A stretch of DNA of 36,147 nucleotides from a virus (IMGVR_UViG_3300027931_000002:1-36147), one strand, 5' to 3'; counted from the first letter of the stretch, positions 648 to 36,147 are shown. Numbers and translations are program-made. Notes: generated from the letters alone by a model not told the origin.

Positions 648-988
648 TACATCACCCATTACGTTTCGCTATGGCTCTTTATTTATTATTTGGTTGGATA
701 TACTATCTTGTTATTCATGCTCATTGTCCTGTTTATGTTATCTATTTTGTGCTTATTCTTTTTCCAATATGGATTTTTTATGAGGATTTTGCAGATTTTT
801 GCGAATATTCTAATCTGCGTGACATTTTATTCATTAACATTATCTCACTTCCTGTACCATTTTTCGTTTTTTACACTCTTTCTTTCGGATATTATTATTA
901 TCTTACTCTTGCTTACCTAATTTTCTATATATCTCTCGGTCTTTATATCAATTTCAAGATGTTTCGTCGTAAACCTAAATGTTTTTAA
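644..988 (+). CDS. Polytopic membrane protein, 114 aa
   Basis: ORF track entry. The sequence is very hydrophobic (F/Y/L/I-rich, several TM-like segments). ATGA coupling to the upstream small ORF. Confidence 0.6.
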   Translation: MIHHPLRFAMALYLLFGWIYYLVIHAHCPVYVIYFVLILFPIWIFYEDFADFCEYSNLRDILFINIISLPVPFFVFYTLSFGYYYYLTLAYLIFYISLGLYINFKMFRRKPKCF

Positions 989-1011
989 GCCCTGTATCCA
1001 CTATTTTTAAC
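982..1011 (+). promoter_or_regulatory. Class I promoter: TTTTTAAG (982-989) - CCC - TGTATCCA (993-1000) - N11 - ATG 1012
   Basis: The TATA-like box centre is about 26 nt from the ATG. The same geometry recurs at 4381-4410, 21959-21989 and 23264-23293 (minus strand). Confidence 0.65.
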
Positions 1012-1209
1012 ATGCACGGTCTTACTTTCATCAAACCCGATGGTGAAACGATAAAAGTCTTATTTTTCCCCACTAAAGCTATTGCAAAAGCATACCTTGA
1101 GATGTTATTGGAGGATTTCACCAGGTTGGGTTATAATGTTAAATATGGTGAGAAAGACGGAAAAATTTATTTTAATATTTCTGATAAAATTTTTATTGTA
1201 GGTGAGTGA
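1012..1209 (+). CDS. Small protein, cassette gene A copy 1 (65 aa)
   Basis: The start at ATG 1012 is chosen from the promoter geometry and alignment to paralogue 4411..4608. The two share MH.LT...G.I.K.L.FP....KAY..ML.ED...L.Y.V....I..VG. Confidence 0.7.
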   Translation: MHGLTFIKPDGETIKVLFFPTKAIAKAYLEMLLEDFTRLGYNVKYGEKDGKIYFNISDKIFIVGE

Positions 1210-1212
1210 TTT

Positions 1213-1467
1213 ATGATAGTTTATTTCGTTAATATAATCGATTCTGATGGTACGGTTTTAGTCCAGAGGGAGTTTCCAACCCAATGTGAACGTCAAACTT
1301 ATGCTGATCTTATGGTTGATATACTTTCCTTTATTGAAGGTCGTAAAGTAAAGGATGTAAAGAAAGAAATACTGAAAGAAAATAAGGCTCTTAAGTCAGT
1401 TTTAGCGTCTGCCAGGGAAATAGAGGAAAAATTTGTTGTAACAGAAATGGTTGTTGAAAAAGCTTAA
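1213..1467 (+). CDS. Small protein, cassette gene B copy 1 (84 aa)
   Basis: Paralogue of 4612..4836: VNIIDSDGTVLVQREF...QTYADLMVDILS versus VDVMDSNGNLLIHREF...QTYADILMEIIS. It starts 4 nt after the gene A stop in both copies. Confidence 0.7.
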   Translation: MIVYFVNIIDSDGTVLVQREFPTQCERQTYADLMVDILSFIEGRKVKDVKKEILKENKALKSVLASAREIEEKFVVTEMVVEKA

Positions 1468-4380: not shown

Positions 4381-4410
4381 TTTTTAAATCCTGTATCCAT
4401 TATTTTTCTC
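4381..4410 (+). promoter_or_regulatory. Class I promoter: TTTTTAAA (4381-4388) - TCC - TGTATCCA (4392-4399) - N11 - ATG 4411
   Basis: Spacing is identical to the 982-1011 copy. Confidence 0.65.
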
Positions 4411-4608
4411 ATGCATAAATTGACTTTGTTTAATTGTAAGGGTGATATTTTTAAGGAATTGGTTTTTCCTTCTGAAGAGTTTACTAAGGCTTATATGCAT
4501 ATGTTAGCTGAAGATATGGATAAATTGAAGTATTGGGTGGACTTTAAGAAAGTGGGGGATAAATACGTTATTAAAATTGAACACCAAATAATTGTTGTAG
4601 GTGATTAA
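4411..4608 (+). CDS. Small protein, cassette gene A copy 2 (65 aa)
   Basis: Paralogue of 1012..1209, with the start set by the same promoter geometry. Confidence 0.7.
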   Translation: MHKLTLFNCKGDIFKELVFPSEEFTKAYMHMLAEDMDKLKYWVDFKKVGDKYVIKIEHQIIVVGD

Positions 4609-4611
4609 GTC

Positions 4612-4836
4612 GTGGAATATTATGTGGTTGATGTTATGGATTCTAATGGTAATTTGTTGATTCATAGGGAGTTTTCTAGTCACATTGATTGTCAGACATA
4701 TGCCGATATTTTGATGGAGATTATTTCCTGTGTAGAGTTTCATAGGGAGAGGGAACTAAAATCCGATGATCCTTCTATTTTAAGAATTAGGGAAGTTAAT
4801 GGTAAGTACTTTATCATTGAAAAGGTTTGTAAATAA
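4612..4836 (+). CDS. Small protein, cassette gene B copy 2 (74 aa, GTG start)
   Basis: Paralogue of 1213..1467. The GTG start at 4612 is supported by N-terminal alignment (MEYYVVDVMDSNG versus MIVYFVNIIDSDG) and by the same 4-nt gap after gene A. Confidence 0.7.
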   Translation: MEYYVVDVMDSNGNLLIHREFSSHIDCQTYADILMEIISCVEFHRERELKSDDPSILRIREVNGKYFIIEKVCK

Positions 4837-12956: not shown

Positions 12957-14570
12957 TCAACCAGAGTATGGTGATACTGATGCGGTTGCGGTATCAGATT
13001 GTATATACTGTGCTGGTATATATGGACTACTAAATACCGATACTGATGCAGTTGCAGTATCAGATTGCATATATTGTGCTGGTATATATGAATTATTAAA
13101 TAATGATGTTGGTGCTGATACGGAATTACCTATAATGTTCCCTATCTCTAAACACACTTGTACACTACTATCAATACCCTCATTTATTGCACCACTAATA
13201 CTACTTACAGGTGCATTATTTGCAGGTGGTAAACATATTGGTACTCCAAGTAAGTATGTCTGTACACTTACTCCACCTGTAAATGATACATCTACATTAT
13301 CTTGTTCACTTACTTTGTTTATTTTCAACTGTGCATATGGCAACACGTATACGCTATCTGTTTCACTGAATGATATGAATTCCCTAGTTATTTGTGCAAT
13401 ATATCCATCTATGCTGAGCTGGTCAATTGCCGTGACACTGTTCGGATATGGTGATACTAGTTTATTACTGACAGTTGGTAATGCTGTCAGTATCTCCTCA
13501 TCGTTCTCCCTAACACCGACCACATATTTCTCAAAAGTTTGTGCTGACTTTAATTGCACTGATGCAGAAGGTGGTTGAGTTACCGTAGGTGGTGTATAAT
13601 TTGGGGATACGGGTTGGAATGGGTTCGGTATACTTATCTTGCTTGTAACACTAGATTTAGGTGGAGTGTTGACTTGAGTCCTTTGTGATGCACCAACGCC
13701 AGTGATTTCAGGGAAGAACGAATTTATTGCTGACTCAGCAATTAGCGAAGTAAATCCTGCAATAAATGGAGACCCTATCTTTAATAATATCGGTGCCAGC
13801 GTCTTCTTCTTAGCCATATTTTCTGCCAGTCTATCAAGGGATTTCATTTCTTCAAAGAACAAGTTATAGGAAGCTACTTTTGGCAACGCTGATGCTATCT
13901 TGGATGTCACATATTTTGACACGTCCTCAGGTGCATACTTCAGATCGTTAAATATATTACCCACATAATCTATCGCTCCATTAAATAGATTTTCGACATG
14001 TGATGCAAATGACGTTAGTGCATTGAGTATGTCACCACCAACTGTTAATAACCCATTCCATATGGTTGCAAAGAAATTCTTAATATCAGCATATATGTCA
14101 CCAAATATCACGGGTAATTGCATTAATGAGTAACCTATTTCCCTAAATCCGTTATATAACCATTCACCAACACCATGTAAAGCGTCTCCAATATGTACTA
14201 TTCCACCCCATATCCACTTACCAATATACTCAAAGGCATTTGCAACTCTCTGAAATGCACCGTATACTGCACTAGCGACAATATGGAAAGCCTCATAGAA
14301 GAAAGTACCAAATGAAGTAGCAAATGATACTAGACCATGCCATATGGCACTACCTAACTGTCCAAAAATACTCGCTATATCACTTCCTATCGATAGGATG
14401 CCATTATATATTCCCTGAGCAATATTAGCTATCGAATGTATAACTCCTTGTATAGCGTTTTGCACACCGTTCACTATGTTTGATCCAAAGTTTACTACAC
14501 CGCTAAAGGTATCACTAGCTCCACTGAAGAAATTAGTAATATCCTGTTCTATCCCACTAATGAAACTCAT
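12957..14570 (-). CDS. Large virion-associated protein (537 aa): Gly/aromatic amphipathic repeats at the N-terminus, 22-aa tandem repeat at the C-terminus
   Basis: The start is moved to ATG 14570 (MSFISGIEQD...). The track start at 14696 would overlap the neighbouring gene and add an odd hydrophobic leader. The N-terminal 250 aa are rich in G-x-x-x-G/N-G-I-type repeats. Confidence 0.6.
   Translation of the reverse strand: MSFISGIEQDITNFFSGASDTFSGVVNFGSNIVNGVQNAIQGVIHSIANIAQGIYNGILSIGSDIASIFGQLGSAIWHGLVSFATSFGTFFYEAFHIVASAVYGAFQRVANAFEYIGKWIWGGIVHIGDALHGVGEWLYNGFREIGYSLMQLPVIFGDIYADIKNFFATIWNGLLTVGGDILNALTSFASHVENLFNGAIDYVGNIFNDLKYAPEDVSKYVTSKIASALPKVASYNLFFEEMKSLDRLAENMAKKKTLAPILLKIGSPFIAGFTSLIAESAINSFFPEITGVGASQRTQVNTPPKSSVTSKISIPNPFQPVSPNYTPPTVTQPPSASVQLKSAQTFEKYVVGVRENDEEILTALPTVSNKLVSPYPNSVTAIDQLSIDGYIAQITREFISFSETDSVYVLPYAQLKINKVSEQDNVDVSFTGGVSVQTYLLGVPICLPPANNAPVSSISGAINEGIDSSVQVCLEIGNIIGNSVSAPTSLFNNSYIPAQYMQSDTATASVSVFSSPYIPAQYIQSDTATASVSPYSG
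12973..13104. repeat. 66-bp tandem duplication (2 units) inside the 3' end of 12957..14570
   Basis: Unit 1 (12973-13038) and unit 2 (13039-13104) both begin GATACTGATGC.GTTGC.GTATCAGATTG.ATATA.TGTGCTGGTATATATG. About 48 of the first 52 nt are identical. The repeat encodes (S)PYIPAQY(I/M)QSDTATASVS twice. Confidence 0.85.
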
Positions 14571-14649
14571 GCTAATTTTATATACCCCGAGACGGAATAA
14601 AAAAGTATGGGAAAAATTAAGGTACGTGATGAAATAAAAATAGCTGTTG

Positions 14650-15555
14650 TTAAGAAGAATAACGAGAAGAACGAAGCAAATAAGAAATAGATTCATAAAT
14701 TTTTTCGGGCTTAAACTCTTCCCTAGCCTTATTTTTTATTTTCCATGATAGTTCCTTATATTCATTTTCCGACATTGACAACGCATATTTTACCGCTTCA
14801 ATAACGTCCTCATATTCATATTCAAACCAATCCTCCCTCTTTTTATATGCGGGTATCGGTATCCCTTCTGCATATTCCTCAAACGCGTGACCGTTAATGA
14901 AAATGGGTATCGTTCCTGCTATCATTGATTCAAGGACAGGTAACCCAAATCCTTCCGTATGAGACAAAGCTAGGTAGAAACGTGATTGAGTTATCATTTT
15001 ATATAGTTCCTCTCTTTTTAATGACATGAATTTGTAACACCAATCCTCTCCATTACATTCATTACTTATTTCAATATACTTTAACCCTAATTCTTTAGCA
15101 ATCTTCCTCGCTACCTTAAGCCCCTTATGGTCATCTTCAGTATTGTAACCAATAGTGATAACGTCGAATTTTTTCTCCTTTACATTATCAACTACCTGTA
15201 TTTCGTCTGGGTCATAAGGATGTGGTACTACTTCTACACGTTTAAATAATTTCGAGAATAATTTAGCGTTATAATTTGATGTCGTAATTAATAGGTGGTC
15301 TTCTTTTCTGTATACGTCTTTGATGTATTGATATGGCGAATCACCTCTTATGATACTTCTAGGTGATTCTATATTATCAATTACTCTACACTGTGACCAC
15401 CACAAATTTACGTCGATAAACTCAATGTCGCCATTACAACCTATTTTCTGTAACACGATGTCCTTGCTCCTAGTTTTTATCCAGTTGTAGAATTGGGTTG
15501 CAACAATATCAAAACTGCAATTAATGCATTGTTTGGAAATTATCATCTTGGTCAC
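14650..15555 (-). CDS. Glycosyltransferase (GT-B, GT4-like) with N-terminal 4-Cys module
   Basis: Motif SHTEGFGLPVLESMIAGTIPIF plus N-terminal QCINCSF. Paralogue of 5809..6591 and 18185..19060. Confidence 0.8.
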   Translation of the reverse strand: MTKMIISKQCINCSFDIVATQFYNWIKTRSKDIVLQKIGCNGDIEFIDVNLWWSQCRVIDNIESPRSIIRGDSPYQYIKDVYRKEDHLLITTSNYNAKLFSKLFKRVEVVPHPYDPDEIQVVDNVKEKKFDVITIGYNTEDDHKGLKVARKIAKELGLKYIEISNECNGEDWCYKFMSLKREELYKMITQSRFYLALSHTEGFGLPVLESMIAGTIPIFINGHAFEEYAEGIPIPAYKKREDWFEYEYEDVIEAVKYALSMSENEYKELSWKIKNKAREEFKPEKIYESISYLLRSSRYSS

Positions 15556-15557
15556 TC

Positions 15558-16130
15558 TTATATACAGTATTTGAGTCCGTTAATATAGTGACACACTCCG
15601 TTCATATATAACGTCCTGCTTTGTAATTGGATGTGTATGAATATGTCCACCGGGTTAGTCGTGTAGAGAGAGTTGTTTAGATAGTTATCAATTACCTCTC
15701 CCAGTTTAGGTTTCCACGATAACGGTAGGTAAAAGTTAGTTGATAGGAAGAAGGTCACTATAAAGTCGCTAGGTTTTGCCTTTGCAGGAATAGCGATAGT
15801 AGTCGGCACGTTTGCATTTTCGAACCGTTTAATTACGTTCTGTATATCATTTACAATGACGTCGCTGTCAAGGAATAGAATGTTATCGTTTATTCTCGAA
15901 ATTATTTCCTTAATCATTTTCACTATCCTTATTCGCCTATTAATCATTTCAACTTCATCAGAATTACTAGGTTTTATTCCCGTGTCAACGTAATGATAAT
16001 TGACATTCTTATCATAATAGACTTCTCCTATAATATATGACTTATCAACGAAAACATCCGTTAACTTATTTTTTTCTATAGCTTCTCTCAAGTATTGAGT
16101 TTTTCCCAGAAATGTCACAATATGTGTCAC
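15558..16130 (-). CDS. Putative GT-A type glycosyltransferase, 190 aa
   Basis: ILFLDSDVIVND is a DxD-like motif after a hydrophobic strand. Supported by its position within the glycosyltransferase cluster. Confidence 0.45.
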   Translation of the reverse strand: MTHIVTFLGKTQYLREAIEKNKLTDVFVDKSYIIGEVYYDKNVNYHYVDTGIKPSNSDEVEMINRRIRIVKMIKEIISRINDNILFLDSDVIVNDIQNVIKRFENANVPTTIAIPAKAKPSDFIVTFFLSTNFYLPLSWKPKLGEVIDNYLNNSLYTTNPVDIFIHIQLQSRTLYMNGVCHYINGLKYCI

Positions 16131-16220
16131 GTTATTAAACTTTTATATTCAAGATTTTATGTTTTTACGACTTTACTCGATACAAAAATTTATATATAAA
16201 ATGTGATATAACAAATTATT

Positions 16221-16538
16221 GTGGATTGGAAACCTATCAAAAGAGAGTTGTTTGTAACTATTGAGGGAATTCAAAAAGAAGGTGATACGGATAAATGTAC
16301 TGATTTTTTGTTTAAAGAATGTAGAAAGTTTGACGTAAGTGAGTGTGACGATTATTGGTCAACTTGCTGGGAGAAATTCAGGGTCAAAGTTTTTAATAAG
16401 ATAAAATATGAAGGAGACCGTTATCACAGTGCAGAATATGTATATGATATTTCTGTAATGAAACATTTATTAATTATATTCGCATTCTTAGCATCACTTG
16501 CAATAATTTTATCTTCTACCCTAATCTTTAACCTCTAA
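16221..16538 (+). CDS. Cys-rich protein with C-terminal TM anchor, 105 aa (GTG start)
   Basis: TATA-like TTTATATATAAAA lies about 26 nt upstream of GTG 16221. The C-terminus LLIIFAFLASLAIILSSTLIF is hydrophobic. Confidence 0.5.
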   Translation: MDWKPIKRELFVTIEGIQKEGDTDKCTDFLFKECRKFDVSECDDYWSTCWEKFRVKVFNKIKYEGDRYHSAEYVYDISVMKHLLIIFAFLASLAIILSSTLIFNL

Positions 16539-17877: not shown

Positions 17878-18093
17878 TTAGAGACCTAAGTAGCCTAGGA
17901 ATGAACCGACGAATGGTAGACTTGATGCGAATTTGGTTATAACTCCTACTATTATTCCTGCTACCGCTAATGCTACGAATATGTCTGCATTGTTTGCTAT
18001 GAAGTTCGCTACTCCAGCTAAGAAATTAGTTATTGCTGATACTAATGATGTTACTACTGAAGTTAAGGCAGATGCAACATTTGCGTAGGACAT
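17878..18093 (-). CDS. Small very hydrophobic Ala/Val/Gly-rich membrane protein, 71 aa (envelope candidate)
   Basis: ORF track entry. It has a class II TGTATCCA promoter like the capsid gene. Confidence 0.6.
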   Translation of the reverse strand: MSYANVASALTSVVTSLVSAITNFLAGVANFIANNADIFVALAVAGIIVGVITKFASSLPFVGSFLGYLGL

Positions 18094-18148
18094 CTATCTG
18101 TCCCCGTATTCAATGTTTGTACGATATATAAAATATCTAGTGGATACA
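18094..18148 (-). promoter_or_regulatory. Class II promoter: TGTATCCA (18148->18141) - CTAGAT - ATTTTATATATCG - about 35 nt - ATG 18093
   Basis: Here the motif lies immediately upstream of the TATA-like box. The geometry matches 20780-20830. Confidence 0.55.
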
Positions 18149-20498: not shown

Positions 20499-20768
20499 CT
20501 AATCACATATCTTCAAGTTTAGAACTTTCACTTTCTTTGATGGAGGAGGGTATTCAGTAAATAGCCTCTTGACAAATTCTCTTGGCGTTATTTTTCCCGA
20601 GTCAAGCTCGTCTAGCAAAATAAGCAGTCTCTCTTTAGTTTTAGGCACTACTCTAGTTTGGTCTAGAAGCATGTAAGCAATCCTTATTGCCTGAGGTATC
20701 GAGTATTTCTTAGAATTAGCTAATAGCAGGTATACGCACCTAACAAACTGTGTCTTTGTTAACGCCAT
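20499..20768 (-). CDS. Hypothetical protein, 89 aa
   Basis: ORF track entry, divergent from the capsid gene promoter region. Confidence 0.55.
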   Translation of the reverse strand: MALTKTQFVRCVYLLLANSKKYSIPQAIRIAYMLLDQTRVVPKTKERLLILLDELDSGKITPREFVKRLFTEYPPPSKKVKVLNLKICD

Positions 20769-20779
20769 ACATTATTATA

Positions 20780-20830
20780 TGTATCCAAATATTTATATAT
20801 TACGTTTTATAGATATACACGTGATGTAGT
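20780..20830 (+). promoter_or_regulatory. Class II promoter: TGTATCCA (20780-20787) - AAT - ATTTATATATTA - about 28 nt - ATG 20831
   Basis: The motif lies directly upstream of the strongest TATA-like box in the region. The predicted 5' UTR is about 9 nt. Confidence 0.6.
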
Positions 20831-21445
20831 ATGGCTGGTAGACAGTCTCATAGAAAGCAGGATACAAGGAATGATACATCGACTAGGTATAAGGGCAAAC
20901 TCTACGGCATATTTATTAATTACATGGGAGAGAAGTATGCTCAGGAACTTGTAGAGCAAATGTATGCTAATTACAGGGATGTATTTGAAGAGATTTATAC
21001 TAAAATCCACAATAACTTGAGACCTACTTTAGTTAAACTTGCAGGTGCAGGTGCCACATTCCCATTATGGCAAATTATTAATGAAAGTATCTATGCTGTC
21101 TATTTAACACATAAGGAAACTGCTTCATTTCTTGTGACTAAGTACTTAAGTAGGGGTATTCCTGCAAGTACCATTAAGAAAATACTAGCTGAGGTGGGCA
21201 ATCAACTTAAGGAGTTAGTTCCCGCTGTAGCTGAACAGCTCAGTGGTGTCACATTAGATGAATCTAATGTAGTAACAACGCTCGATAACATAGTAACTAA
21301 AATGCCAGCACTACCCAACTCCTATGCAGGTACCTTAATGAAGAGTAGGGTACCCACTGCACCTCCACATTATGCAGGAACTAAGACATTTAGTAACATT
21401 GAGTCCACGTATAAGGCATTAGAGGATATAGAAAAAGGTTTGTGA
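20831..21445 (+). CDS. Major capsid protein candidate 1 (204 aa)
   Basis: Basic N-terminal arm (MAGRQSHRKQDTRNDTSTRYKGK) followed by a helix-rich body. It is adjacent to a second such gene, the paired arrangement known for lipothrixvirus nucleocapsid heterodimers. Confidence 0.7.
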   Translation: MAGRQSHRKQDTRNDTSTRYKGKLYGIFINYMGEKYAQELVEQMYANYRDVFEEIYTKIHNNLRPTLVKLAGAGATFPLWQIINESIYAVYLTHKETASFLVTKYLSRGIPASTIKKILAEVGNQLKELVPAVAEQLSGVTLDESNVVTTLDNIVTKMPALPNSYAGTLMKSRVPTAPPHYAGTKTFSNIESTYKALEDIEKGL

Positions 21446-21456
21446 GGTGGTGAAAG

Positions 21457-21957
21457 GTGGCGAGAAGGAATAGGAGATTAAGTTCTGCTTCAGTTTACAG
21501 ATACTACCTGAAAAGATATACAATGAACCTAGGAACTACAGGACACATGTTGGCAAAGGAAATTACATATAATCCTGAGGCGATGAAAGCAATTTCTAAG
21601 TTGTCAGAACAGGAAACTTATAATTGGCTAACAGATTACACACCATCACATTTGGCAAAAGAAGTAGTAAAGAATATCGCCGAAAAATACAATATTCCCG
21701 GCACATTCCAAGGATTATTGATGGCATTTGCTGAGAAAGTACTTGCGAATTACATATTAGATTACAAAGGAGAACCATTAGTAGAAATGCACCACAACTT
21801 CCTGTGGGAACTAATGCAGAGGACTACAACTACTACAGTTACAGGAACATCTGGATACTTATATACGTTTATAGGTAAGAGCGGGAAACCGTATACTGTT
21901 GATATGAGTAAAATACTAACAGAAATCGAGAACGAATTGTTCAAGTTATTAAAGTAA
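21457..21957 (+). CDS. Major capsid protein candidate 2 (166 aa, GTG start)
   Basis: SD-like GAGGTGGTGA lies upstream of GTG 21457. Basic N-terminus (ARRNRRLSSASVYRYYLKRY) and helical body. Confidence 0.7.
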   Translation: MARRNRRLSSASVYRYYLKRYTMNLGTTGHMLAKEITYNPEAMKAISKLSEQETYNWLTDYTPSHLAKEVVKNIAEKYNIPGTFQGLLMAFAEKVLANYILDYKGEPLVEMHHNFLWELMQRTTTTTVTGTSGYLYTFIGKSGKPYTVDMSKILTEIENELFKLLK

Positions 21958-21958
21958 C

Positions 21959-21989
21959 TTTTTTTTACTCTGTATCCATTTTTTAAGAT
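21959..21989 (+). promoter_or_regulatory. Class I promoter: T-run/TTTTTTAC - TC - TGTATCCA (21971-21978) - N11 - ATG 21990
   Basis: Same 19-nt motif-to-ATG spacing as at 993 and 4392. Confidence 0.6.
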
Positions 21990-22526
21990 ATGGATAAAAT
22001 AAAACTAAAAGGTTCAGTTGCTTACGTTTACAAGGTTTTTGTTGAATCTCTGAAGAAAGCAGGTATAGAAACCGTTAGCGGAGCATTGAATGAAAATGCA
22101 GTAGTAGTTGGCGTACCGTTTAGTAAATTTGCTGACCTTATAACGGCAGAAATTAACAAGGATATTTGGGAGCAAAAAATCAAAAACGGGAAATTATTCC
22201 TTGTAGGTATGAAAGAACTAGTTGATGAGGATGTGAAAACTGTTAACAATAAATTACTTTCAAAACTAAAGAAAATAGGAGTCGACGCTAGTGCTTATAT
22301 TACTGACGATGGAGATGCTGTGGTAATGGTATCTCTCATTGATGTAATACTGAGAATTCTAGAAAAAACCTTACAGGAAACTAAGGCAAGGGCAAGTAAT
22401 CACATGAGGGCTTTAAGAGTAAAATTTGGAAATGATGATGATTATGCTTATATTATAATTTACACAAGAAGCTCACAAAAAGACACACTAACTAGTAAAA
22501 TAGAGGAGGTGTTGAAAGGTGAGTGA
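21990..22526 (+). CDS. Hypothetical protein, 178 aa
   Basis: ORF track entry. The leaderless-type start is set by the class I promoter. Confidence 0.65.
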   Translation: MDKIKLKGSVAYVYKVFVESLKKAGIETVSGALNENAVVVGVPFSKFADLITAEINKDIWEQKIKNGKLFLVGMKELVDEDVKTVNNKLLSKLKKIGVDASAYITDDGDAVVMVSLIDVILRILEKTLQETKARASNHMRALRVKFGNDDDYAYIIIYTRSSQKDTLTSKIEEVLKGE

Positions 22527-22893
22527 AAATCAACAACAAGACTTGGCAAAAAGAGTTGAGGAACTGGAAAAGAAAGTCCAAGAACTTACTGAACAGTTGG
22601 AGAAGACTAAAAATGCCGTGAAGACGGTAGCTGGTATTCTTGATAACCATTTGAAGGGTAAATGGACACTGGAAGATATTCAGATGGCTCTTAATCACAT
22701 TAACGAAATGATTCAGTTACTTACTCAGGCTGGGATAATAAGACCAGGTGGTGAAGGAGGAGGGAATTGGTTACAGATGATGCTAGCACAACAAATGTTA
22801 ACACAGAAACAGACACAGAACGACGTAGAAGTTGAGCCATTAAAAAAGAAATCAAAGAAAAAATTAAAAAAATTCCTTGAGGAAGAAGAATGA
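22519..22893 (+). CDS. Coiled-coil protein with Lys-rich C-terminus, 124 aa (GTG start)
   Basis: SD-like GAGGAGGTG lies upstream. Heptad-like LAKRVEELEKKVQELTEQLEKTKNAV. Confidence 0.6.
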   Translation: MSENQQQDLAKRVEELEKKVQELTEQLEKTKNAVKTVAGILDNHLKGKWTLEDIQMALNHINEMIQLLTQAGIIRPGGEGGGNWLQMMLAQQMLTQKQTQNDVEVEPLKKKSKKKLKKFLEEEE

Positions 22894-22894
22894 T

Positions 22895-23263
22895 TTAAAA
22901 AATAGACTGTAGTTCTTTTCTAGCCCTCTTTTCTAATTCTCCAGACCAGAATTCCTTATAACTAGGTATCATTGCCTTTAAGATATAAAGAGCATTAACT
23001 AAATAAGCGGGATTACCATTTTCCGCATATTTTCTAATCTCTACGATATTGCTTTCATCTTTCCCTATATACAGTTTACCACCCTTTATTATCAATAAAT
23101 TTCTGTCTTCATCAACTATGATTCCTGTTGTGTAATTGGTACCACTAGGTAATTGGCTTTCTATTTCGTTGATTAAACTACCTACATAATCCTCGCTTGG
23201 CTTTTGAGGGAGCTGAAACTCTTCTTCCTCCTCTTTTTCCTCATTCTCCTGGTTTTCGCTCAT
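22895..23263 (-). CDS. Hypothetical protein with acidic N-terminus, 122 aa
   Basis: The start is moved to ATG 23263 (MSENQENEEKEEEEE...) because the class I promoter predicts it. The track start at 23350 remains possible. Confidence 0.55.
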   Translation of the reverse strand: MSENQENEEKEEEEEFQLPQKPSEDYVGSLINEIESQLPSGTNYTTGIIVDEDRNLLIIKGGKLYIGKDESNIVEIRKYAENGNPAYLVNALYILKAMIPSYKEFWSGELEKRARKELQSIF

Positions 23264-23293
23264 AGGATAAGGTATGGATACAAAATATTTAAA
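23264..23293 (-). promoter_or_regulatory. Class I promoter (minus strand): TTTAAATA - TTT - TGTATCCA (23282->23275) - N11 - ATG 23263
   Basis: The reverse complement of 23264-23297 reads AAAATTTAAATATTTTGTATCCATACCTTATCCT followed by ATG. The spacing is identical to the plus-strand copies. Confidence 0.6.
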
Positions 23294-23427
23294 TTTTGCT
23301 GTTCCGATTATGTACGTATGAGGATTGTAGAAGAAGGGTGGGTTGGGCATGAAAATCTGAAAGTTAAATACGCAATAGTGGAAGAAATACCAGAAAAATT
23401 ATACCACATAATTTGTCCTTCTTTGCA

Positions 23428-24207
23428 TTATTTTGAATATTGCTTTGACTTGAACCAATGCCGTAAAATAGCCCTTAGTTTGTCAGAGAAAGTTAAAGAC
23501 TTTTTATACGTGTAAAGTACGTTGAAATGAATAGCGTCTTCTCCCATTACACTATATCTTAGATAATTAAAGTAAACACGCTTGTGGTCATCACCTAGTA
23601 TGAACTGTAGGTCAAATAACTCCTTTGTAGGTAAGGGGTCTTTTAACACGATAAGGATATGAATATGCTTTCCCGATGGTGAATATTCCCACCAGGCTTC
23701 TTGTTCCCAGTAACCTAAGCCGTGTAATACTTGTAGTTTCTTCTCTAGTAGCCATTGTGGGTCATAAAATACGGTGTCAACATCAATATCCAATTTAATT
23801 ATTTGATTTGCACTTACCATGTATACTCCCCCCCGTCTCCAGGATATCGATGATACCATGCGATTCTCTTGCCCGTAGCACCCCCATACCACACCCCCTC
23901 GTCCTCCAGTAAAGGTAATACTTGAATACCAAAGAAGTCTAATATCATGTCCTCCAATTCCTCTTCCATTTCCTTGATTTGCTCCTTCTCTTTCTCCTTT
24001 TTTAAAGGTAAACAAATAGTTCCCTCCACGAATAAAGGATGGCTCCATTCGTTGTAGCGGAACGATAATGTAACACATACTGTCTGTGCCGTATTTTTCT
24101 TCACCGATGTTTTTGACGTATGGGATATATCTGATGGGGATTTGCTCAAGTGTCCTCACCTTAAAGTCAATGTACCAGCCCTTTTTTACTACCTGAGCTA
24201 TCAACAT
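23428..24207 (-). CDS. ORF259: C-terminal 130 aa is HUH/Rep-like (alternatively AEP-like); the frame of the central part is ambiguous
   Basis: The ORF is uninterrupted, with a 7-nt overlap with the upstream RHH gene. An internal ATG at 23820 (MVSANQ...) is preceded by a G-rich SD-like run. The C-terminal part has IIKLDIDVD, SGKHIHILIV (H-hydrophobic-H) and VLYTYKK (YxxK). Confidence 0.5.
   Translation of the reverse strand: MLIAQVVKKGWYIDFKVRTLEQIPIRYIPYVKNIGEEKYGTDSMCYIIVPLQRMEPSFIRGGNYLFTFKKGEREGANQGNGRGIGGHDIRLLWYSSITFTGGRGGVVWGCYGQENRMVSSISWRRGGVYMVSANQIIKLDIDVDTVFYDPQWLLEKKLQVLHGLGYWEQEAWWEYSPSGKHIHILIVLKDPLPTKELFDLQFILGDDHKRVYFNYLRYSVMGEDAIHFNVLYTYKKSLTFSDKLRAILRHWFKSKQYSK
23814..24149 (-). 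other. Alternative-frame ORF (111 aa) fully inside ORF259
   Basis: This frame gives ...KKEKEKEQIKEMEEELEDMILDFFGIQVLPLLEDEGVWYGGATGKRIAWYHRYPGDGGEYTW. Its stop overlaps ATG 23820 as ATGGTAA. It is bounded by an A6 run (23998-24003) and a G7 run (23828-23834) on the coding strand. Confidence 0.3.
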
Positions 24208-24491
24208 AACTTTTCAGCCTTAGCTTTGATTAACCTTCTTAACGTTTCAGACCTTGAAATTTCGTATTTTTTAGATAGTAAATCCAATTTTACCAAAGTG
24301 TCCTCAGACATTTTTATACTGAACCCCCTTAAAGATTCTAATGACAAATCATTAACATTAAGAATTTTTTCATTACATTCATCAACCATCTTATTTAATA
24401 TCTTGTCATAATTATTTCTATATTGTTTTATCATTTTTAAAAAATCAATGTCGCTTGGTCTAACTTTTAATGTAACTGCTCTTAGTACCAT
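24201..24491 (-). CDS. Double ribbon-helix-helix (RHH) DNA-binding protein, 96 aa
   Basis: Two RHH-like units: AVTLKVRPSDIDFLKMIKQY... and FSIKMSEDTLVKLDLLSKKYEISRSETLRRLI. Confidence 0.65.
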   Translation of the reverse strand: MVLRAVTLKVRPSDIDFLKMIKQYRNNYDKILNKMVDECNEKILNVNDLSLESLRGFSIKMSEDTLVKLDLLSKKYEISRSETLRRLIKAKAEKLC

Positions 24492-24579
24492 AATTAAAAT
24501 TATACTATCACCTTTTTAAAGCTGTGTGAAAGAGAAAACTTTAAAAATTGTGATGTAATAATTTATGTTAGTGAGAAGC

Positions 24580-24882
24580 ATGCTAGTTACAATTGAAAAA
24601 GAAATTTATGATAAATTAAAAGAAGATGCACAGAAAAAAGCAATAAGCGTAGGTGCTGTAATCAGAGAGATACTATTAAATTATTTTAACTTAGAAGATG
24701 ATACTAAAGCATATTCGAAAAAGGAAATAAGCAATGAAATAATAATAGTGGGAGATAAACAATATGTCAGATTACAGATGAGAATGTCAAAAGAAAATGA
24801 ATTATTGATTAAAAACGAGCTAAGAAAAAGAAATATGAGTGTAAATCAACTTCTAAAAAATGAAATCCTACTTACAGCATAA
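24580..24882 (+). CDS. Double RHH DNA-binding protein, 100 aa
   Basis: Units MLVTIEKEIYDKLKEDAQKKAISVGAVIREILLNYF and YVRLQMRMSKENELLIKNELRKRNMSVNQLLKNEIL. ATG 24565 is an alternative start. Confidence 0.6.
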   Translation: MLVTIEKEIYDKLKEDAQKKAISVGAVIREILLNYFNLEDDTKAYSKKEISNEIIIVGDKQYVRLQMRMSKENELLIKNELRKRNMSVNQLLKNEILLTA

Positions 24883-25331: not shown

Positions 25332-25613
25332 ATGGGGTATACAATAAGAATCCCGAAAAAATATTTCCACAAATTGAAAAGTATATGTGAAAATTATAAT
25401 AGTTATAGGGAATGCGTCCTGAAAGAAATAGAGAAAAAGTATAATTATGAAATTTATAATTCAAAAAAGCCCCACGATATGAGAATATATGCTGATACAG
25501 TACCGAAACCAATTTTCATAATATTCTTTCAAGAAGAGAGTAAAAAATTGGAGGAATTAGCAAAAAAACTAGGAAAAACTAAATATGAGATAATAATGAG
25601 TATTTTTGAGTAA
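25332..25613 (+). CDS. Double RHH-like DNA-binding protein, 93 aa
   Basis: Units YTIRIPKKYFHKLKSICENY... and IFIIFFQEESKKLEELAKKLGKTKYEIIMSIF. The overlapping minus-strand ORF 25228..25512 was judged spurious. Confidence 0.55.
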   Translation: MGYTIRIPKKYFHKLKSICENYNSYRECVLKEIEKKYNYEIYNSKKPHDMRIYADTVPKPIFIIFFQEESKKLEELAKKLGKTKYEIIMSIFE

Positions 25614-25634
25614 AAAATAAAAAATTAACTTTTT

Positions 25635-26006
25635 TTAATCTTTCGCTTCATTAAAAGTATAGAAATTAAGTTTTCCCATTTCCAATGGTATTACCACAAT
25701 ACCATGTTCTGGATGGACTAATATTGTTTTTTCTTGTAATGGTATAATAAAATGATTATTAGCAAATACCCAAATATTACTAGCTACATTACTATCCTTT
25801 CTATTGCACTCATGTAACCATGCATTTCTTAGTCCTCTTCTCCTTCTATCAGAGATAAGAAAATTTGTGACCACCAGGTCTCCTTGACGCACTACAAATT
25901 TTTCATCTTTCCTTATCAGATTTGTTAAATCGTACCTATCATATACAGACGCTTCAAAAAAATTAATTTGACTTAGATTTTTTTGAATCTGGATTTGGAG
26001 ACTCAT
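25635..26006 (-). CDS. Hypothetical protein, 123 aa
   Basis: ORF track entry. No motif recognised. Confidence 0.55.
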   Translation of the reverse strand: MSLQIQIQKNLSQINFFEASVYDRYDLTNLIRKDEKFVVRQGDLVVTNFLISDRRRRGLRNAWLHECNRKDSNVASNIWVFANNHFIIPLQEKTILVHPEHGIVVIPLEMGKLNFYTFNEAKD

Positions 26007-26074
26007 GTTTCTTCATTATAAATTGTTATCTCACAAACTTATAAACTTTTGCTTCTATATAATTATGATAAAAC

Positions 26075-27076
26075 ATGATGAGAAAAGAAGACCCGAATAT
26101 CCAATATTTAAAATATGTAATAAAGAATTTTGATAATTTTTTAACAGATGTTGAATACGTTTACAAGAAAAATTATAAAATCAGAGATTATGAGTACATT
26201 CTACATAAATTAAATGAAAAAATGATTTTTATGTATATATTCCACAATAAAATAGAGATTGTAAAGAAAAACGAAAATAAATTTGAAGTTACTGTAAATT
26301 TAGATAACTTCCTAACTATTGCTACAATGAGAAGAATTACTAAATTCGTGAAAACTGAAAATAAACATTATTATAATTATTTATTGTCATATTATCACGG
26401 CACATGGCATTTTGTTTTTGATAATTTAATAATTCCAATAAGATACAATTCGAGATTAATAAGACTTACTATAATTAAAAAACCACAAAAATATTACTTA
26501 ACACTACCAGAATTAGAAATAAAACCTTTACCAGATGAAAAATACGGATTTCCAATAATTCCTAATGAGCTGTATTTGTATGAGATAAACGGTAAAAAAG
26601 TGGAAAAAATAATAAAGCATTACAAAAAGAAATACAAAGGCATGCCATATATAATAAGAATAAAATTACAAAACAGAAAAATTGAGTACGCAATATACAA
26701 ATTCTTAGTAAACAAAGAAATATTCAAAAGATATGAGGAGAAAATGCCACCATTGGTATTCAGAATTAATAATAATGAAATTCCAGAACATTCATGGTAT
26801 TTTACTAATATATATGTACCTAATTTACAAGCGATTAGAGGTGGTAGATTTCCTAGCTTTAATCACACAGTAATTCAAGATTATGATGATGACGGTGTCA
26901 ATCAAATTTTATTAAAGCTTATAACAATTTCGAATAACAGTTTCCTATGCGGTGTTGATTATTCGAATAGTCTATGGTGTATGAGATTACCTGGATTTAT
27001 GTATAAGTACAAAATAAAATCAGTTTACAAAGTATTGTATGAATTAGATGAAAAAACGAAAATCTTTGAGTTTTAA
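26075..27076 (+). CDS. Hypothetical Lys/Asn/Tyr-rich protein, 333 aa
   Basis: Long ORF in the most AT-rich part of the genome. No motif recognised. Confidence 0.6.
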   Translation: MMRKEDPNIQYLKYVIKNFDNFLTDVEYVYKKNYKIRDYEYILHKLNEKMIFMYIFHNKIEIVKKNENKFEVTVNLDNFLTIATMRRITKFVKTENKHYYNYLLSYYHGTWHFVFDNLIIPIRYNSRLIRLTIIKKPQKYYLTLPELEIKPLPDEKYGFPIIPNELYLYEINGKKVEKIIKHYKKKYKGMPYIIRIKLQNRKIEYAIYKFLVNKEIFKRYEEKMPPLVFRINNNEIPEHSWYFTNIYVPNLQAIRGGRFPSFNHTVIQDYDDDGVNQILLKLITISNNSFLCGVDYSNSLWCMRLPGFMYKYKIKSVYKVLYELDEKTKIFEF

Positions 27077-27081
27077 CCTTT

Positions 27082-27115
27082 TTTTTATATACACGTTTTT
27101 CTCTTCATCAAGAAG
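27082..27115 (-). promoter_or_regulatory. Orphan copy of the motif-B promoter module (CTTCTTGATGAAGAG - N7 - TGTATATAAAAAA on the minus strand)
   Basis: The plus strand at 27101-27115 reads CTCTTCATCAAGAAG. On the minus strand the motif is followed by a TATA-like box pointing into the 3' end of 26075..27076, where there is no minus-strand ORF. Confidence 0.4.
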
Positions 27116-27493: not shown

Positions 27494-27531
27494 TTTATAT
27501 ATATATAAATCTTTGTCTCTTCATCAAGAAG
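27494..27531 (-). promoter_or_regulatory. Motif-B promoter: CTTCTTGATGAAGAG (27531->27517) - AC - AAAGATTTATATATATATAAAA
   Basis: Read on the minus strand. It shares about 85 percent identity over about 36 nt with 27969-28004. Confidence 0.6.
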
Positions 27532-27944: not shown

Positions 27945-27970
27945 ATTTTTCCCCTCTATATTATTCCTCT

Positions 27971-28004
27971 TTTATATATATAAATCTTTTTCTTCATTAA
28001 GAGA
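27971..28004 (-). promoter_or_regulatory. Motif-B promoter variant: TCTCTTAATGAAGA - A - AAAGATTTATATATATAAA
   Basis: The plus strand at 27991-28004 reads TCTTCATTAAGAGA (11 of 14 match to copy 2). The TATA run is at 27971-27984. Confidence 0.55.
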
Positions 28005-28221: not shown

Positions 28222-28370
28222 ATTTTACTGATTTGAGTTAACCCAAACCACTAAAATTTTTTAAATATAAACGATTTTACGCCCTAATTTGCCCTAAAAA
28301 TAAGGGAAAAGAAGGAGAAAAAACAAAAATTAAGAGTTTAAAAATATTTCTAGTAAACTGACAAGAGGAA

Positions 28371-28404
28371 TTTTAAAACTTTTTTGTATCCAGACTGAAA
28401 GTAA
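28371..28404 (+). promoter_or_regulatory. Orphan class-I-like module: TTTTAAAA (28371-28378) - N6 - TGTATCCA (28385-28392), with no ATG at +19
   Basis: Same element order as the four class I promoters, but position 28404 is ATT and there is no plus-strand ORF downstream. It faces the 3' end of the minus-strand ORF 28426..28620. Confidence 0.4.
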
Positions 28405-28413
28405 TTGTAAGTC

Positions 28414-28437
28414 CTTTCAATTCAATCACTGATAATC
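28414..28437 (-). repeat. Solitary CRISPR-repeat-like 24-mer GATTATCAGTGATTGAATTGAAAG
   Basis: On the minus strand it starts GATTA and ends GAATTGAAAG, like the Sulfolobales repeats as I recall them (GATTAATCCCAAAAGGAATTGAAAG and GATAATCTCTTATAGAATTGAAAG). No second copy occurs within 100 nt. Confidence 0.35.
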
Positions 28438-35743: not shown

Positions 35744-36147
35744 TTTTCGCATATAAATTGTTACATCACTTTTTTGAATACTTCTTTAGAGAGTTCGAAG
35801 TTCGTAGTTCGAGTTTACGAACTGTGAGGTTCGAAAAAAAATTGTTCTAGAACTTTTTTCTTTTCTTAAAACAGACCTGAATGAGTCCCAGCATGAAATA
35901 CCAAGCGTCAGTGTGTCAGTACGAACTCATGAGTGTCAGTGTGAACGAGTGAAGTGTAACCCCCCCGCATGAGGGGTGGGAAAGTATATCTATATAATAA
36001 AAAAAAGAATGAGTGTCAGTAAGAAGTATGAAGTAACTAATGTAATATACGTATAAGACATAAGAAATATGATATACGTATAAGACTAAGAATACGTATA
36101 AGACATATCTAACACGAATACGTATACTAACACATATAACATATCTC
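35744..36147. repeat. Right inverted terminal repeat (ITR), 404 bp
   Basis: Reverse complement of 1-404, carrying the same sub-repeat sets in mirror order. Confidence 0.95.

Follow-up and report, generated by a model that had tools for sequence, protein, structure and literature searches.

In the viral DNA stretch IMGVR_UViG_3300027931_000002, analysed over its whole length of 36,147 bp and called the window below, the octamer TGTATCCA stands at exact distances from TATA-like elements: between TATA and the start codon at one set of genes (class I), and upstream of TATA at another (class II), which includes the operon for the two capsid proteins. The box is kept at orthologous promoters of other betalipothrixviruses, and in these alignments cross-genome conservation is the strong and decisive evidence for it. 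We think it likely that TGTATCC(A) acts as a cis-regulatory element of betalipothrixvirus promoters, most probably as the site for one sequence-specific, asymmetric DNA-binding protein, in two fixed architectures of which class I would be repressed and class II activated. A dedicated asymmetric protein is favoured because the word is invariant, always lies beside TATA, occurs on either side of it and nearly always points in one orientation.

Copies of the box and their enrichment

The octamer occurs seven times on the two strands of the window (first base at 993, 4392, 20780, 21971 and 28385 on the plus strand, and at 18148 and 23282 on the minus strand). Dinucleotide shuffles of the window held 1.48 +/- 1.20 copies with a maximum of 5, none of 100 reaching seven, and a first-order Markov model gave an expectation of 1.57 (P = 0.0012). 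A preliminary description of this DNA had put the chance expectation at one or two copies, had proposed a comparison with shuffled sequence and had placed every copy in intergenic DNA; the expectation of about 1.5 agrees with its estimate, and given validated gene starts all seven copies are indeed non-coding. One-mismatch variants number about 45, most of them within coding DNA. The promoters at 993 and 4392 are paralogous (32 of 40 positions identical) and belong to a duplicated ORF65-ORF84 cassette (ORF, open reading frame), so that the independent copies amount to six rather than seven. Judged by the aligned promoters, the part that matters for function is the 7-mer TGTATCC, preferably followed by A.

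Class I: the box between TATA and the start codon

At four promoters the arrangement TATA-N3-box-N11-ATG is exact, with the TATA octamer at -30 to -23 and the box at -19 to -12: TTTTTAAG-CCC-TGTATCCA-N11-ATG(1012) at ORF65a, TTTTTAAA-TCC-TGTATCCA-N11-ATG(4411) at ORF65b, TTTTTTTA-CTC-TGTATCCA-N11-ATG(21990) at ORF178 and, on the minus strand, TTTAAATA-TTT-TGTATCCA-N11-ATG(23263) at ORF122. These four -19 sites, each preceded by a TATA-like octamer, had been recognised in the preliminary description and hold at the validated ATGs, except that the third octamer it gave, TTTTTTAC, is one base off. The location expected of an operator between TATA and start is occupied at these four sites and, with the box inverted, at ORF89, and it is kept in relatives. 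The earlier suggestion that archaeal repressors act there agrees with the aCcr1-boxes, documented repressor sites between TATA and start codon, for which prevention of pre-initiation complex formation is the proposed mechanism (PMC9976878).

Class I genes carry no Shine-Dalgarno motif, and operon-internal genes of the same operons have GGTGA or GAGGTG 6-10 nucleotides upstream; ORF84a, the second gene of the cassette, has such a motif in front, as does MCP2. Because of this distribution, it is reasonable to expect that class I transcripts are leaderless, as had been predicted. First genes are leaderless in the general Sulfolobales pattern.

Class II: the box upstream of TATA

In class II the box is separated from the downstream TATA by four nucleotides at MCP1 (MCP, major capsid protein), where the promoter reads box-AATA-TTTATATA, and by seven at ORF71, where it reads box-N7-TTTTATAT. 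Both promoters present the same sequence directly upstream of the TFB-recognition element (BRE) and TATA, the position of an upstream activating site, and their genes have a G-rich, less canonical sequence (GTGAT, GGGGA) within a predicted leader of about 10 nucleotides. Because two copies sit upstream of the MCP1 and ORF71 TATA elements, the regulon takes in capsid genes and a pure repressor is too narrow a description.

Read on the minus strand, the MCP1 box (TGGATACA) also occupies -19 to -12 of ATG 20768, the start of the divergent ORF89. Between ORF89 and MCP1, the 62 bp of intergenic DNA contain a sole TATA element (TTTATATA / TATATAAA), whose position suits both genes and which may serve both directions. 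The preliminary description had counted the three copies outside its four promoters, but it had overlooked that two lie upstream of the MCP1 and ORF71 TATA elements and that the MCP1 copy is an inverted -19 box for ORF89.

Conservation in relatives

Relatives were gathered through the MCP1 protein and not through the motif, which yielded seven reference genomes, two IMG/VR genomes and 55 metagenome loci; orthologues were placed by tblastn and their upstream regions were then read. At the MCP1 promoter, with the box at -51, TGTATCCAAA is invariant in all 47 distinct sequences (MCP1 identity 67-100%). At the ORF71 promoter, with the box at -55, TGTATCC is invariant in 25 of 25 distinct sequences, beside flanking columns that are 40-60% conserved. 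The ORF178 promoter has TGTATCC at -19 in 36 of 41 distinct sequences and has lost it in the Acidianus filamentous viruses (AFV) 3, 6, 7, 8 and 9 and in locus L059. The ORF122 promoter carries the box at -19 in every genome or metagenome locus with an aligned start (AFV3/6/7/8 read TGTATCCT), and its promoter block AAATTTAAATATTTTGTATCC is common to all eight complete betalipothrixvirus genomes. The ORF65a box recurs with the same spacing in UViG_3300026623 and, as cGTATCCA, in AFV9. In AFV6, boxes stand ahead of gp32, gp36/gp37 and gp45. Motif and spacing, for which a search in relatives had been suggested, are conserved at orthologous promoters, and this supports the earlier view of a co-regulated gene set.

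The architecture extends to SSFV3, whose MCP1 is only 36% identical: TGTATCCAA-N3-TTTATAAA (TGTATCCAATAATTTATAAA) stands 50 nucleotides before its MCP1, and its ORF122 homologue is preceded by TATA-N3-TGTATCCA. ORF122 and ORF89 homologues are adjacent there on one strand (25499-26171 in the SSFV3 sequence, L079), in one operon with this single promoter. Since they share one promoter in SSFV3, whereas ORF89 diverges from MCP1 in betalipothrixviruses, both genes stay under a class I box despite rearrangement, and they are class I genes kept even in this distant virus. AFV2, a Deltalipothrixvirus, has four copies of TGTATCC, none with promoter context and none at the promoters inspected, and the capsid promoter of Sulfolobus islandicus rod-shaped virus 2 (SIRV2) lacks the box. 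Because the box is unused in these AFV2 and SIRV2 promoters, the system appears specific to the lineage of betalipothrixviruses and SSFV3.

The genome and its gene starts

The window is the complete genome of an undescribed betalipothrixvirus resembling Sulfolobus islandicus filamentous virus (SIFV). It is recognised as a complete linear genome because a perfect inverted terminal repeat of 404 bp lies at both ends (1-404 and 35744-36147); G+C is about 33%, and about 89% of the genome is ORF. Its proteins match PF25654 (MCP1) and PF21660 (MCP2), the SIFV-type capsid pair, and its gene order agrees with that of SIFV, so that paired MCP1/MCP2, long inverted terminal repeats on a linear genome and SIFV/AFV gene order, the marks of a betalipothrixvirus, are all present. 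At the DNA level, only 4-6% of a 20-kb query finds a match among known betalipothrixviruses, with 75-77% identity. The MCP1 protein shares 80% identity with its SIFV counterpart and 92% with that of an uncultivated IMG/VR genome, and the same protein is also found on hot-spring metagenome contigs.

In a profile search, PHROG profiles spanned the 65-, 178- and 122-residue products completely, and it is by these full-length matches and by homologue lengths that the ATGs at 1012, 4411, 21990 and 23263 are validated; longer mechanical ORFs (979.., 4348.., ..23350) are extensions without conservation. The public gene calls cut ORF89 to 57 residues, where 89 are supported, and stretch ORF122 to 151, where 122 are supported (proteins P0049 and P0054; window 20499-20768 and 22895-23350). 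Because ORF122 was called too long, a TGTATCCA box and its TATA box were hidden within annotated coding sequence. No solved structures were found for ORF65 and ORF178. The features are collected in Table 1.

Table 1. Promoter elements, genes and candidate factors in the window
Feature	Position	Strand	Basis or location
TATA-like octamer TTTTTAAG, ORF65a promoter	982..989	+	-30..-23
TGTATCCA box, class I, ORF65a	993..1000	+	-19..-12 of ATG 1012
ORF65a (phrog_16076, SIFV0071 orthologue) and ORF84a (phrog_16559, SIFV0070 orthologue), first cassette copy	1012-1209 and 1213-1467	+	ORF65a profile match 1-65/65
TATA-like octamer TTTTTAAA, ORF65b promoter	4381..4388	+	sequence read
TGTATCCA box, class I, ORF65b	4392..4399	+	-19..-12 of ATG 4411
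ORF65b (4411-4608) and ORF74b (4612-4836), second copy of duplicated cassette	4411..4836	+	profile matches, SIFV orthologues
ORF71, small hydrophobic protein, phrog_9875	17878..18093	-	profile match
TGTATCCA box, class II, ORF71	18141..18148	-	7 nucleotides upstream of TATA-like TTTTATAT (18126-18133), 55 before ATG 18093
ORF89, phrog_12913, SIFV0037 orthologue	20499..20768	-	profile match, homologues
TGTATCCA box common to MCP1 and ORF89	20780..20787	+	MCP1 side: 4 nucleotides upstream of TATA, 51 before ATG 20831
Sole TATA element of ORF89-MCP1 intergenic region	20792-20799	.	position suits both divergent genes
MCP1 (20831-21445) and MCP2 (21457-21957) operon	20831..21957	+	PF25654, PF21660
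T-rich TATA-like octamer TTTTTTTA, ORF178 promoter	21960..21967	+	sequence read
TGTATCCA box, class I, ORF178	21971..21978	+	-19..-12 of ATG 21990
ORF178 (phrog_12956, 21990-22526) and ORF124 (phrog_12270, 22519-22893)	21990..22893	+	profile matches
ORF122, phrog_12001, SIFV0032 orthologue	22895..23263	-	profile match, homologue lengths
TGTATCCA box, class I, ORF122; TATA TTTAAATA at 23286-23293	23275..23282	-	-19..-12 of ATG 23263
Candidate factor: SIFV0029/AFV6 gp30-type ribbon-helix-helix (RHH) protein	24201..24491	-	sequence match, SIFV orthology
Candidate factor: AvtR orthologue, tandem RHH	24565..24882	+	PDB 4HV0, E = 1e-22
TGTATCCA box in conserved non-coding block (about 28330-28425)	28385..28392	+	5-6 nucleotides after TATA-like TTTTAAAA

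A model of position-dependent regulation

How might one box serve two kinds of promoter? We envision that at the class I genes (ORF122, ORF178-ORF124, the two ORF65-ORF84 cassettes and, with an inverted box, ORF89) a bound protein would occupy -19 to -12 and block recruitment of RNA polymerase, with TBP and TFB binding still possible, and that repression would result. In class II (the MCP1-MCP2 operon and ORF71), that protein would instead come to lie against the upstream edge of the TFB-recognition element, where archaeal activators that recruit TFB and TBP sit, and would activate transcription. As the factor builds up, class I genes would be shut down and capsid and envelope genes turned on. 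Such logic has precedents in the dual regulators TrmBL1/Tgr (TGM motif) and SurR of Thermococcales, which activate from upstream of BRE/TATA and repress from downstream of TATA; those are host proteins of Euryarchaeota with palindromic motifs and experimental support, whereas our proposal draws on promoter architecture alone. A methylation site, a packaging signal or an RNA element was rejected by reasoning, the fixed TATA distance on both sides and the location upstream of predicted starts marking a DNA-level transcription element.

Several points weigh against this model. The ORF89 box is oriented opposite to all other class I sites, and the copy at 28385 fits neither class cleanly and lacks a downstream gene. 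The AFV7 annotation lists ORF178 as a structural protein, and yet the gene has a class I box, which is awkward if class I genes are early and repressed late. Enrichment by count is modest when taken alone, and for the 8-mer it is absent in AFV3/6/7/8. The predicted direction of regulation is read from promoter position only, and for the factor there are candidates only.

Alternative explanations

Conceivably, the box is a variant aCcr-type site for a host cell-cycle RHH regulator (aCcr1, aCcr2 or aCcr3), which would tie capsid and core genes to the host cell cycle. The aCcr1-box, A(T/G)G(A)TA(G)A(T/G)TACN, and the ccr-2 box TGTATTAT have TGTAT in common with it and likewise lie between TATA and start codon; moreover, aCcr2 accepts degenerate sites around a conserved GTA, and viruses of Acidianus, Sulfolobus and Saccharolobus alike retain the motif. 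Identity with the aCcr1-box was nevertheless rejected, as TGTATCCA matches 5 of 8 specified positions, namely positions 1-5, and has CCA in place of the TAC half-site. The box is also asymmetric and biased in orientation, whereas aCcr1/3 sites are strict palindromes, the canonical aCcr-like boxes of the window (27 against 16 expected) are not clearly enriched and lie nearly all inside long ORFs, and neither the SIRV2 MCP promoter, from a virus of the same host as SIFV, nor the AFV2 promoters examined have the box; we therefore regard a host cell-cycle site as rather unlikely. Alternatively, the box may be a core-promoter element read by the basal machinery (TFB, TFE, RNA polymerase or a TFB paralogue of the host) and a mark of strong viral promoters, a notion encouraged by its unfailingly tight coupling to TATA and by the look of class I promoters, which apart from the box are like canonical strong leaderless ones, AT-rich proximal region included. 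A basal contact, however, would be expected at one fixed TATA offset, whereas the box lies 3 nucleotides downstream in one class and 4-7 upstream in the other; it is missing from the repeated strong promoters at 27.0-28.0 kb, and the AFV clade has dropped it from an ORF178 promoter that is itself kept, all of which makes this explanation unlikely. Chance combined with common descent, whereby a short AT-rich word without a function is over-counted through duplicated promoters and related genomes, could draw on the paralogy of two of the seven copies and on an enrichment P of only about 1e-3. It is scarcely credible in view of a 7-mer that is invariant across dozens of distinct sequences where adjacent non-coding columns are 40-60% conserved, that survives down to 36% protein identity, and of which every exact copy of the octamer lies outside coding DNA.

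The preliminary description had considered the box genes an early or anti-host set under a shared repressor. Early and anti-defence genes of rudiviruses and lipothrixviruses are indeed associated with virus-specific sequences around strong BRE/TATA promoters (Bhoobalan-Chitty et al. 2024, PMC11065993), and like those motifs the box is shared around strong BRE/TATA at several promoters of one genome, with a viral regulator presumed. The published motifs, however, are genome-specific and belong to small, poorly conserved genes near one end, whereas the box is genus-wide, lies on either side of TATA and is linked to core and capsid genes. The label also fails on the genes themselves: they fall into conserved families (phrog_16076, 12956 and 12001), and every relative has orthologues of them. 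Two of the four promoters flank the capsid operon, whose neighbours are ORF89, ORF122 and ORF178. Their SIFV orthologues SIFV0032, SIFV0034, SIFV0037 and SIFV0071, and likewise SIFV0036 and SIFV0021, do not appear in the supplementary anti-defence gene list of PMC11065993, and identity with an anti-defence promoter was rejected. A different family suits the anti-defence definition: the minus strand carries CTTnATGAAGAnAAAGA-TTTATATATATAAAA, a promoter unit some 37-50 bp long, three times (27079-27115, 27495-27531 and 27968-28004), without TGTATCC, in the AT-rich variable region of 24-27% G+C at 27.0-28.0 kb, and two of the units are directly upstream of small minus-strand ORFs. These units probably represent the early/anti-defence promoter class of PMC11065993, and an early or anti-host role for the box itself is very unlikely. 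A literature search found no betalipothrixvirus transcriptome.

Candidate factors

Which protein might read the box? Our first candidate, offered as a lead only, is the gp30-type protein, with AvtR as the other tandem-RHH candidate; tandem-RHH proteins are put first because the quasi-palindrome TGTA|TCCA is a fitting target for a pseudo-dimeric monomer. SIFV0029, of the gp30 type, is reported to be an aCcr1-clade tandem-RHH monomer (PMC9976892). Further candidates in the window are a SIFV0005-type regulator (RHH by annotation in SIFV2, the window protein having no Pfam match) and a protein like B116 of Sulfolobus turreted icosahedral virus. ORF89 was considered as an autoregulated factor because it diverges from MCP1 with a box in its own promoter, and was rejected (AlphaFold2 model with pLDDT 78 and four helices; no PDB fold match better than E = 2.8; no PDB sequence match). 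ORF122 was likewise rejected (model with pLDDT 72, mixed alpha/beta with a disordered acidic N-terminus; no fold match, the best at E = 1.2; no Pfam match). The two models were of sufficient confidence, but neither matched a DNA-binding fold.

The aCcr system of Sulfolobales, with the RHH regulators aCcr1-3 and viral homologues (PMC9976878, PMC9976892, PMC13199686), resembles the present one in several ways. Its sites likewise lie between TATA and start, as class I boxes do; the cdvA promoter has two aCcr1 motif copies, at -10 to -2 and -40 to -46 (PMC9976892), a layout that mirrors the class I and class II positions; and betalipothrixviruses encode an aCcr1-clade RHH protein of their own. The described aCcr boxes are nonetheless host sites, the aCcr1-box being a 9-bp palindrome (GTA-N-TAC), whereas the box is a predicted site at viral core and capsid promoters that is asymmetric, in one orientation and without the TAC half.

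AvtR, known from AFV6, is a betalipothrixvirus tandem-RHH monomer able to repress and to activate (PMC5569661). Its consensus ATnnTnnTAnnACnTT, as given in a review summary of Peixeiro et al. 2013 (PMC5569661), is hit seven times in the window, where 1.74 hits would be expected; among these are sites in the AvtR/gp30 intergenic region (24499-24514) and in both terminal repeats (292-307 and 35841-35856). The box is not an AvtR site by this measure: none of the seven hits overlaps it, and manual alignment of box and flanks matched at most about half of the specified positions. AvtR sites are also described as remote from TATA, acting via oligomerisation (PMC5569661), whereas the box is 3-7 nucleotides from TATA, and AFV2 has an AvtR-like gene and yet no promoter context for its TGTATCC copies. 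Separately, comparison of the AvtR/gp30 intergenic regions of L001-L007 shows a distinct element in the stretch from TATA to ATG of the gp30-type gene: it is the palindrome TGTGATATCACA in SIFV and SIFV2, reads TGTGCTATCA in the AFVs and, in the window, GGTGATAGTATAA, where it overlaps the AvtR-consensus hit at 24499-24514.

One may imagine that the ORF89-MCP1 region is a genus-wide, direction-flipping promoter switch, in which the sole TATA box could nucleate a pre-initiation complex facing either way and has the TGTATCC box on just one flank. With a viral tandem-RHH protein bound to that box (SIFV0029/gp30 type, aCcr1 clade, and controlled by AvtR), the ORF89 complex to the left would be prevented from forming, and on the capsid side TFB would be oriented or recruited. 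Jointly with the class I sites, a cascade from AvtR through gp30 to the TGTATCC regulon would time virion production. We attach little confidence to this conjecture; if it were true, the cascade would make use of a viral branch of the host's family of cell-cycle regulators, with its specificity re-targeted.

The seventh copy and other sites

The copy at 28385 is part of a non-coding block that reads GTTTAAAAAnnTTTCTAGTAAA ... TTTTTGTATCCAGAnTGAAAnTAAT ... CTTTCAA and is common to SIFV, SIFV2 and two IMG/VR genomes. The block lies just past the stop of a SIFV0021-like ORF, between the AT-rich variable region and that ORF with the helicase gene; no ORF was found downstream of the box on its strand. 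A stem of 5-6 bp (TGAAAG..CTTTCA) follows the box, in which convincing covariation was not seen by eye.

Elsewhere, a one-mismatch box, TGTATCGA, lies on the minus strand at 16159-16184, 4 nucleotides behind the TATA-like TTTTATATATAAA; it directly adjoins an AvtR-consensus match (16159-16174) between the ORFs 15558-16130(-) and 16221-16538(+). AFV9 (L001) has extra TGTATCCA copies in promoter-like context without counterpart in the window, at 21848(-) and 25553(-), one of them 22 nucleotides before an internal ATG of gp42 and the other, TGTATCCAAAATATTTATGC, between gp48 and gp49. Two repeats stand apart from the box: a 66-bp tandem duplication (86% identical, window 12973-13104) within the large minus-strand ORF 12957-14696, and 27-bp direct repeats (GTCTTATACGTATAT.., 62-115) inside the inverted terminal repeat.

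Novelty and significance

Literature on the motif together with Sulfolobus or lipothrixvirus promoters or transcription yielded no description of the box, primer matches aside; the AvtR primary paper and older subscription literature were not covered, and an earlier mention is possible. The kind of element is already known, namely a virus-specific operator beside TATA with position-dependent logic, whereas the element itself, its regulon and its genus-wide invariance appear new. Public gene calls for ORF122 and ORF89 are corrected, and the TGTATCC regulon is set apart from the anti-defence early promoters.

Very little is known of how archaeal filamentous viruses time the expression of their genes, and AvtR, the only characterised betalipothrixvirus regulator that we found, has an unclear biological role. 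The analysis contributes a cis element that is sharply delimited and shared across the genus, a small regulon with the capsid operon among its members, and a short list of candidate regulators. Virion-gene switching in lipothrixviruses thereby becomes a question open to direct binding and mutagenesis experiments in the cultivable systems of SIFV and SIFV2 with Sulfolobus islandicus.

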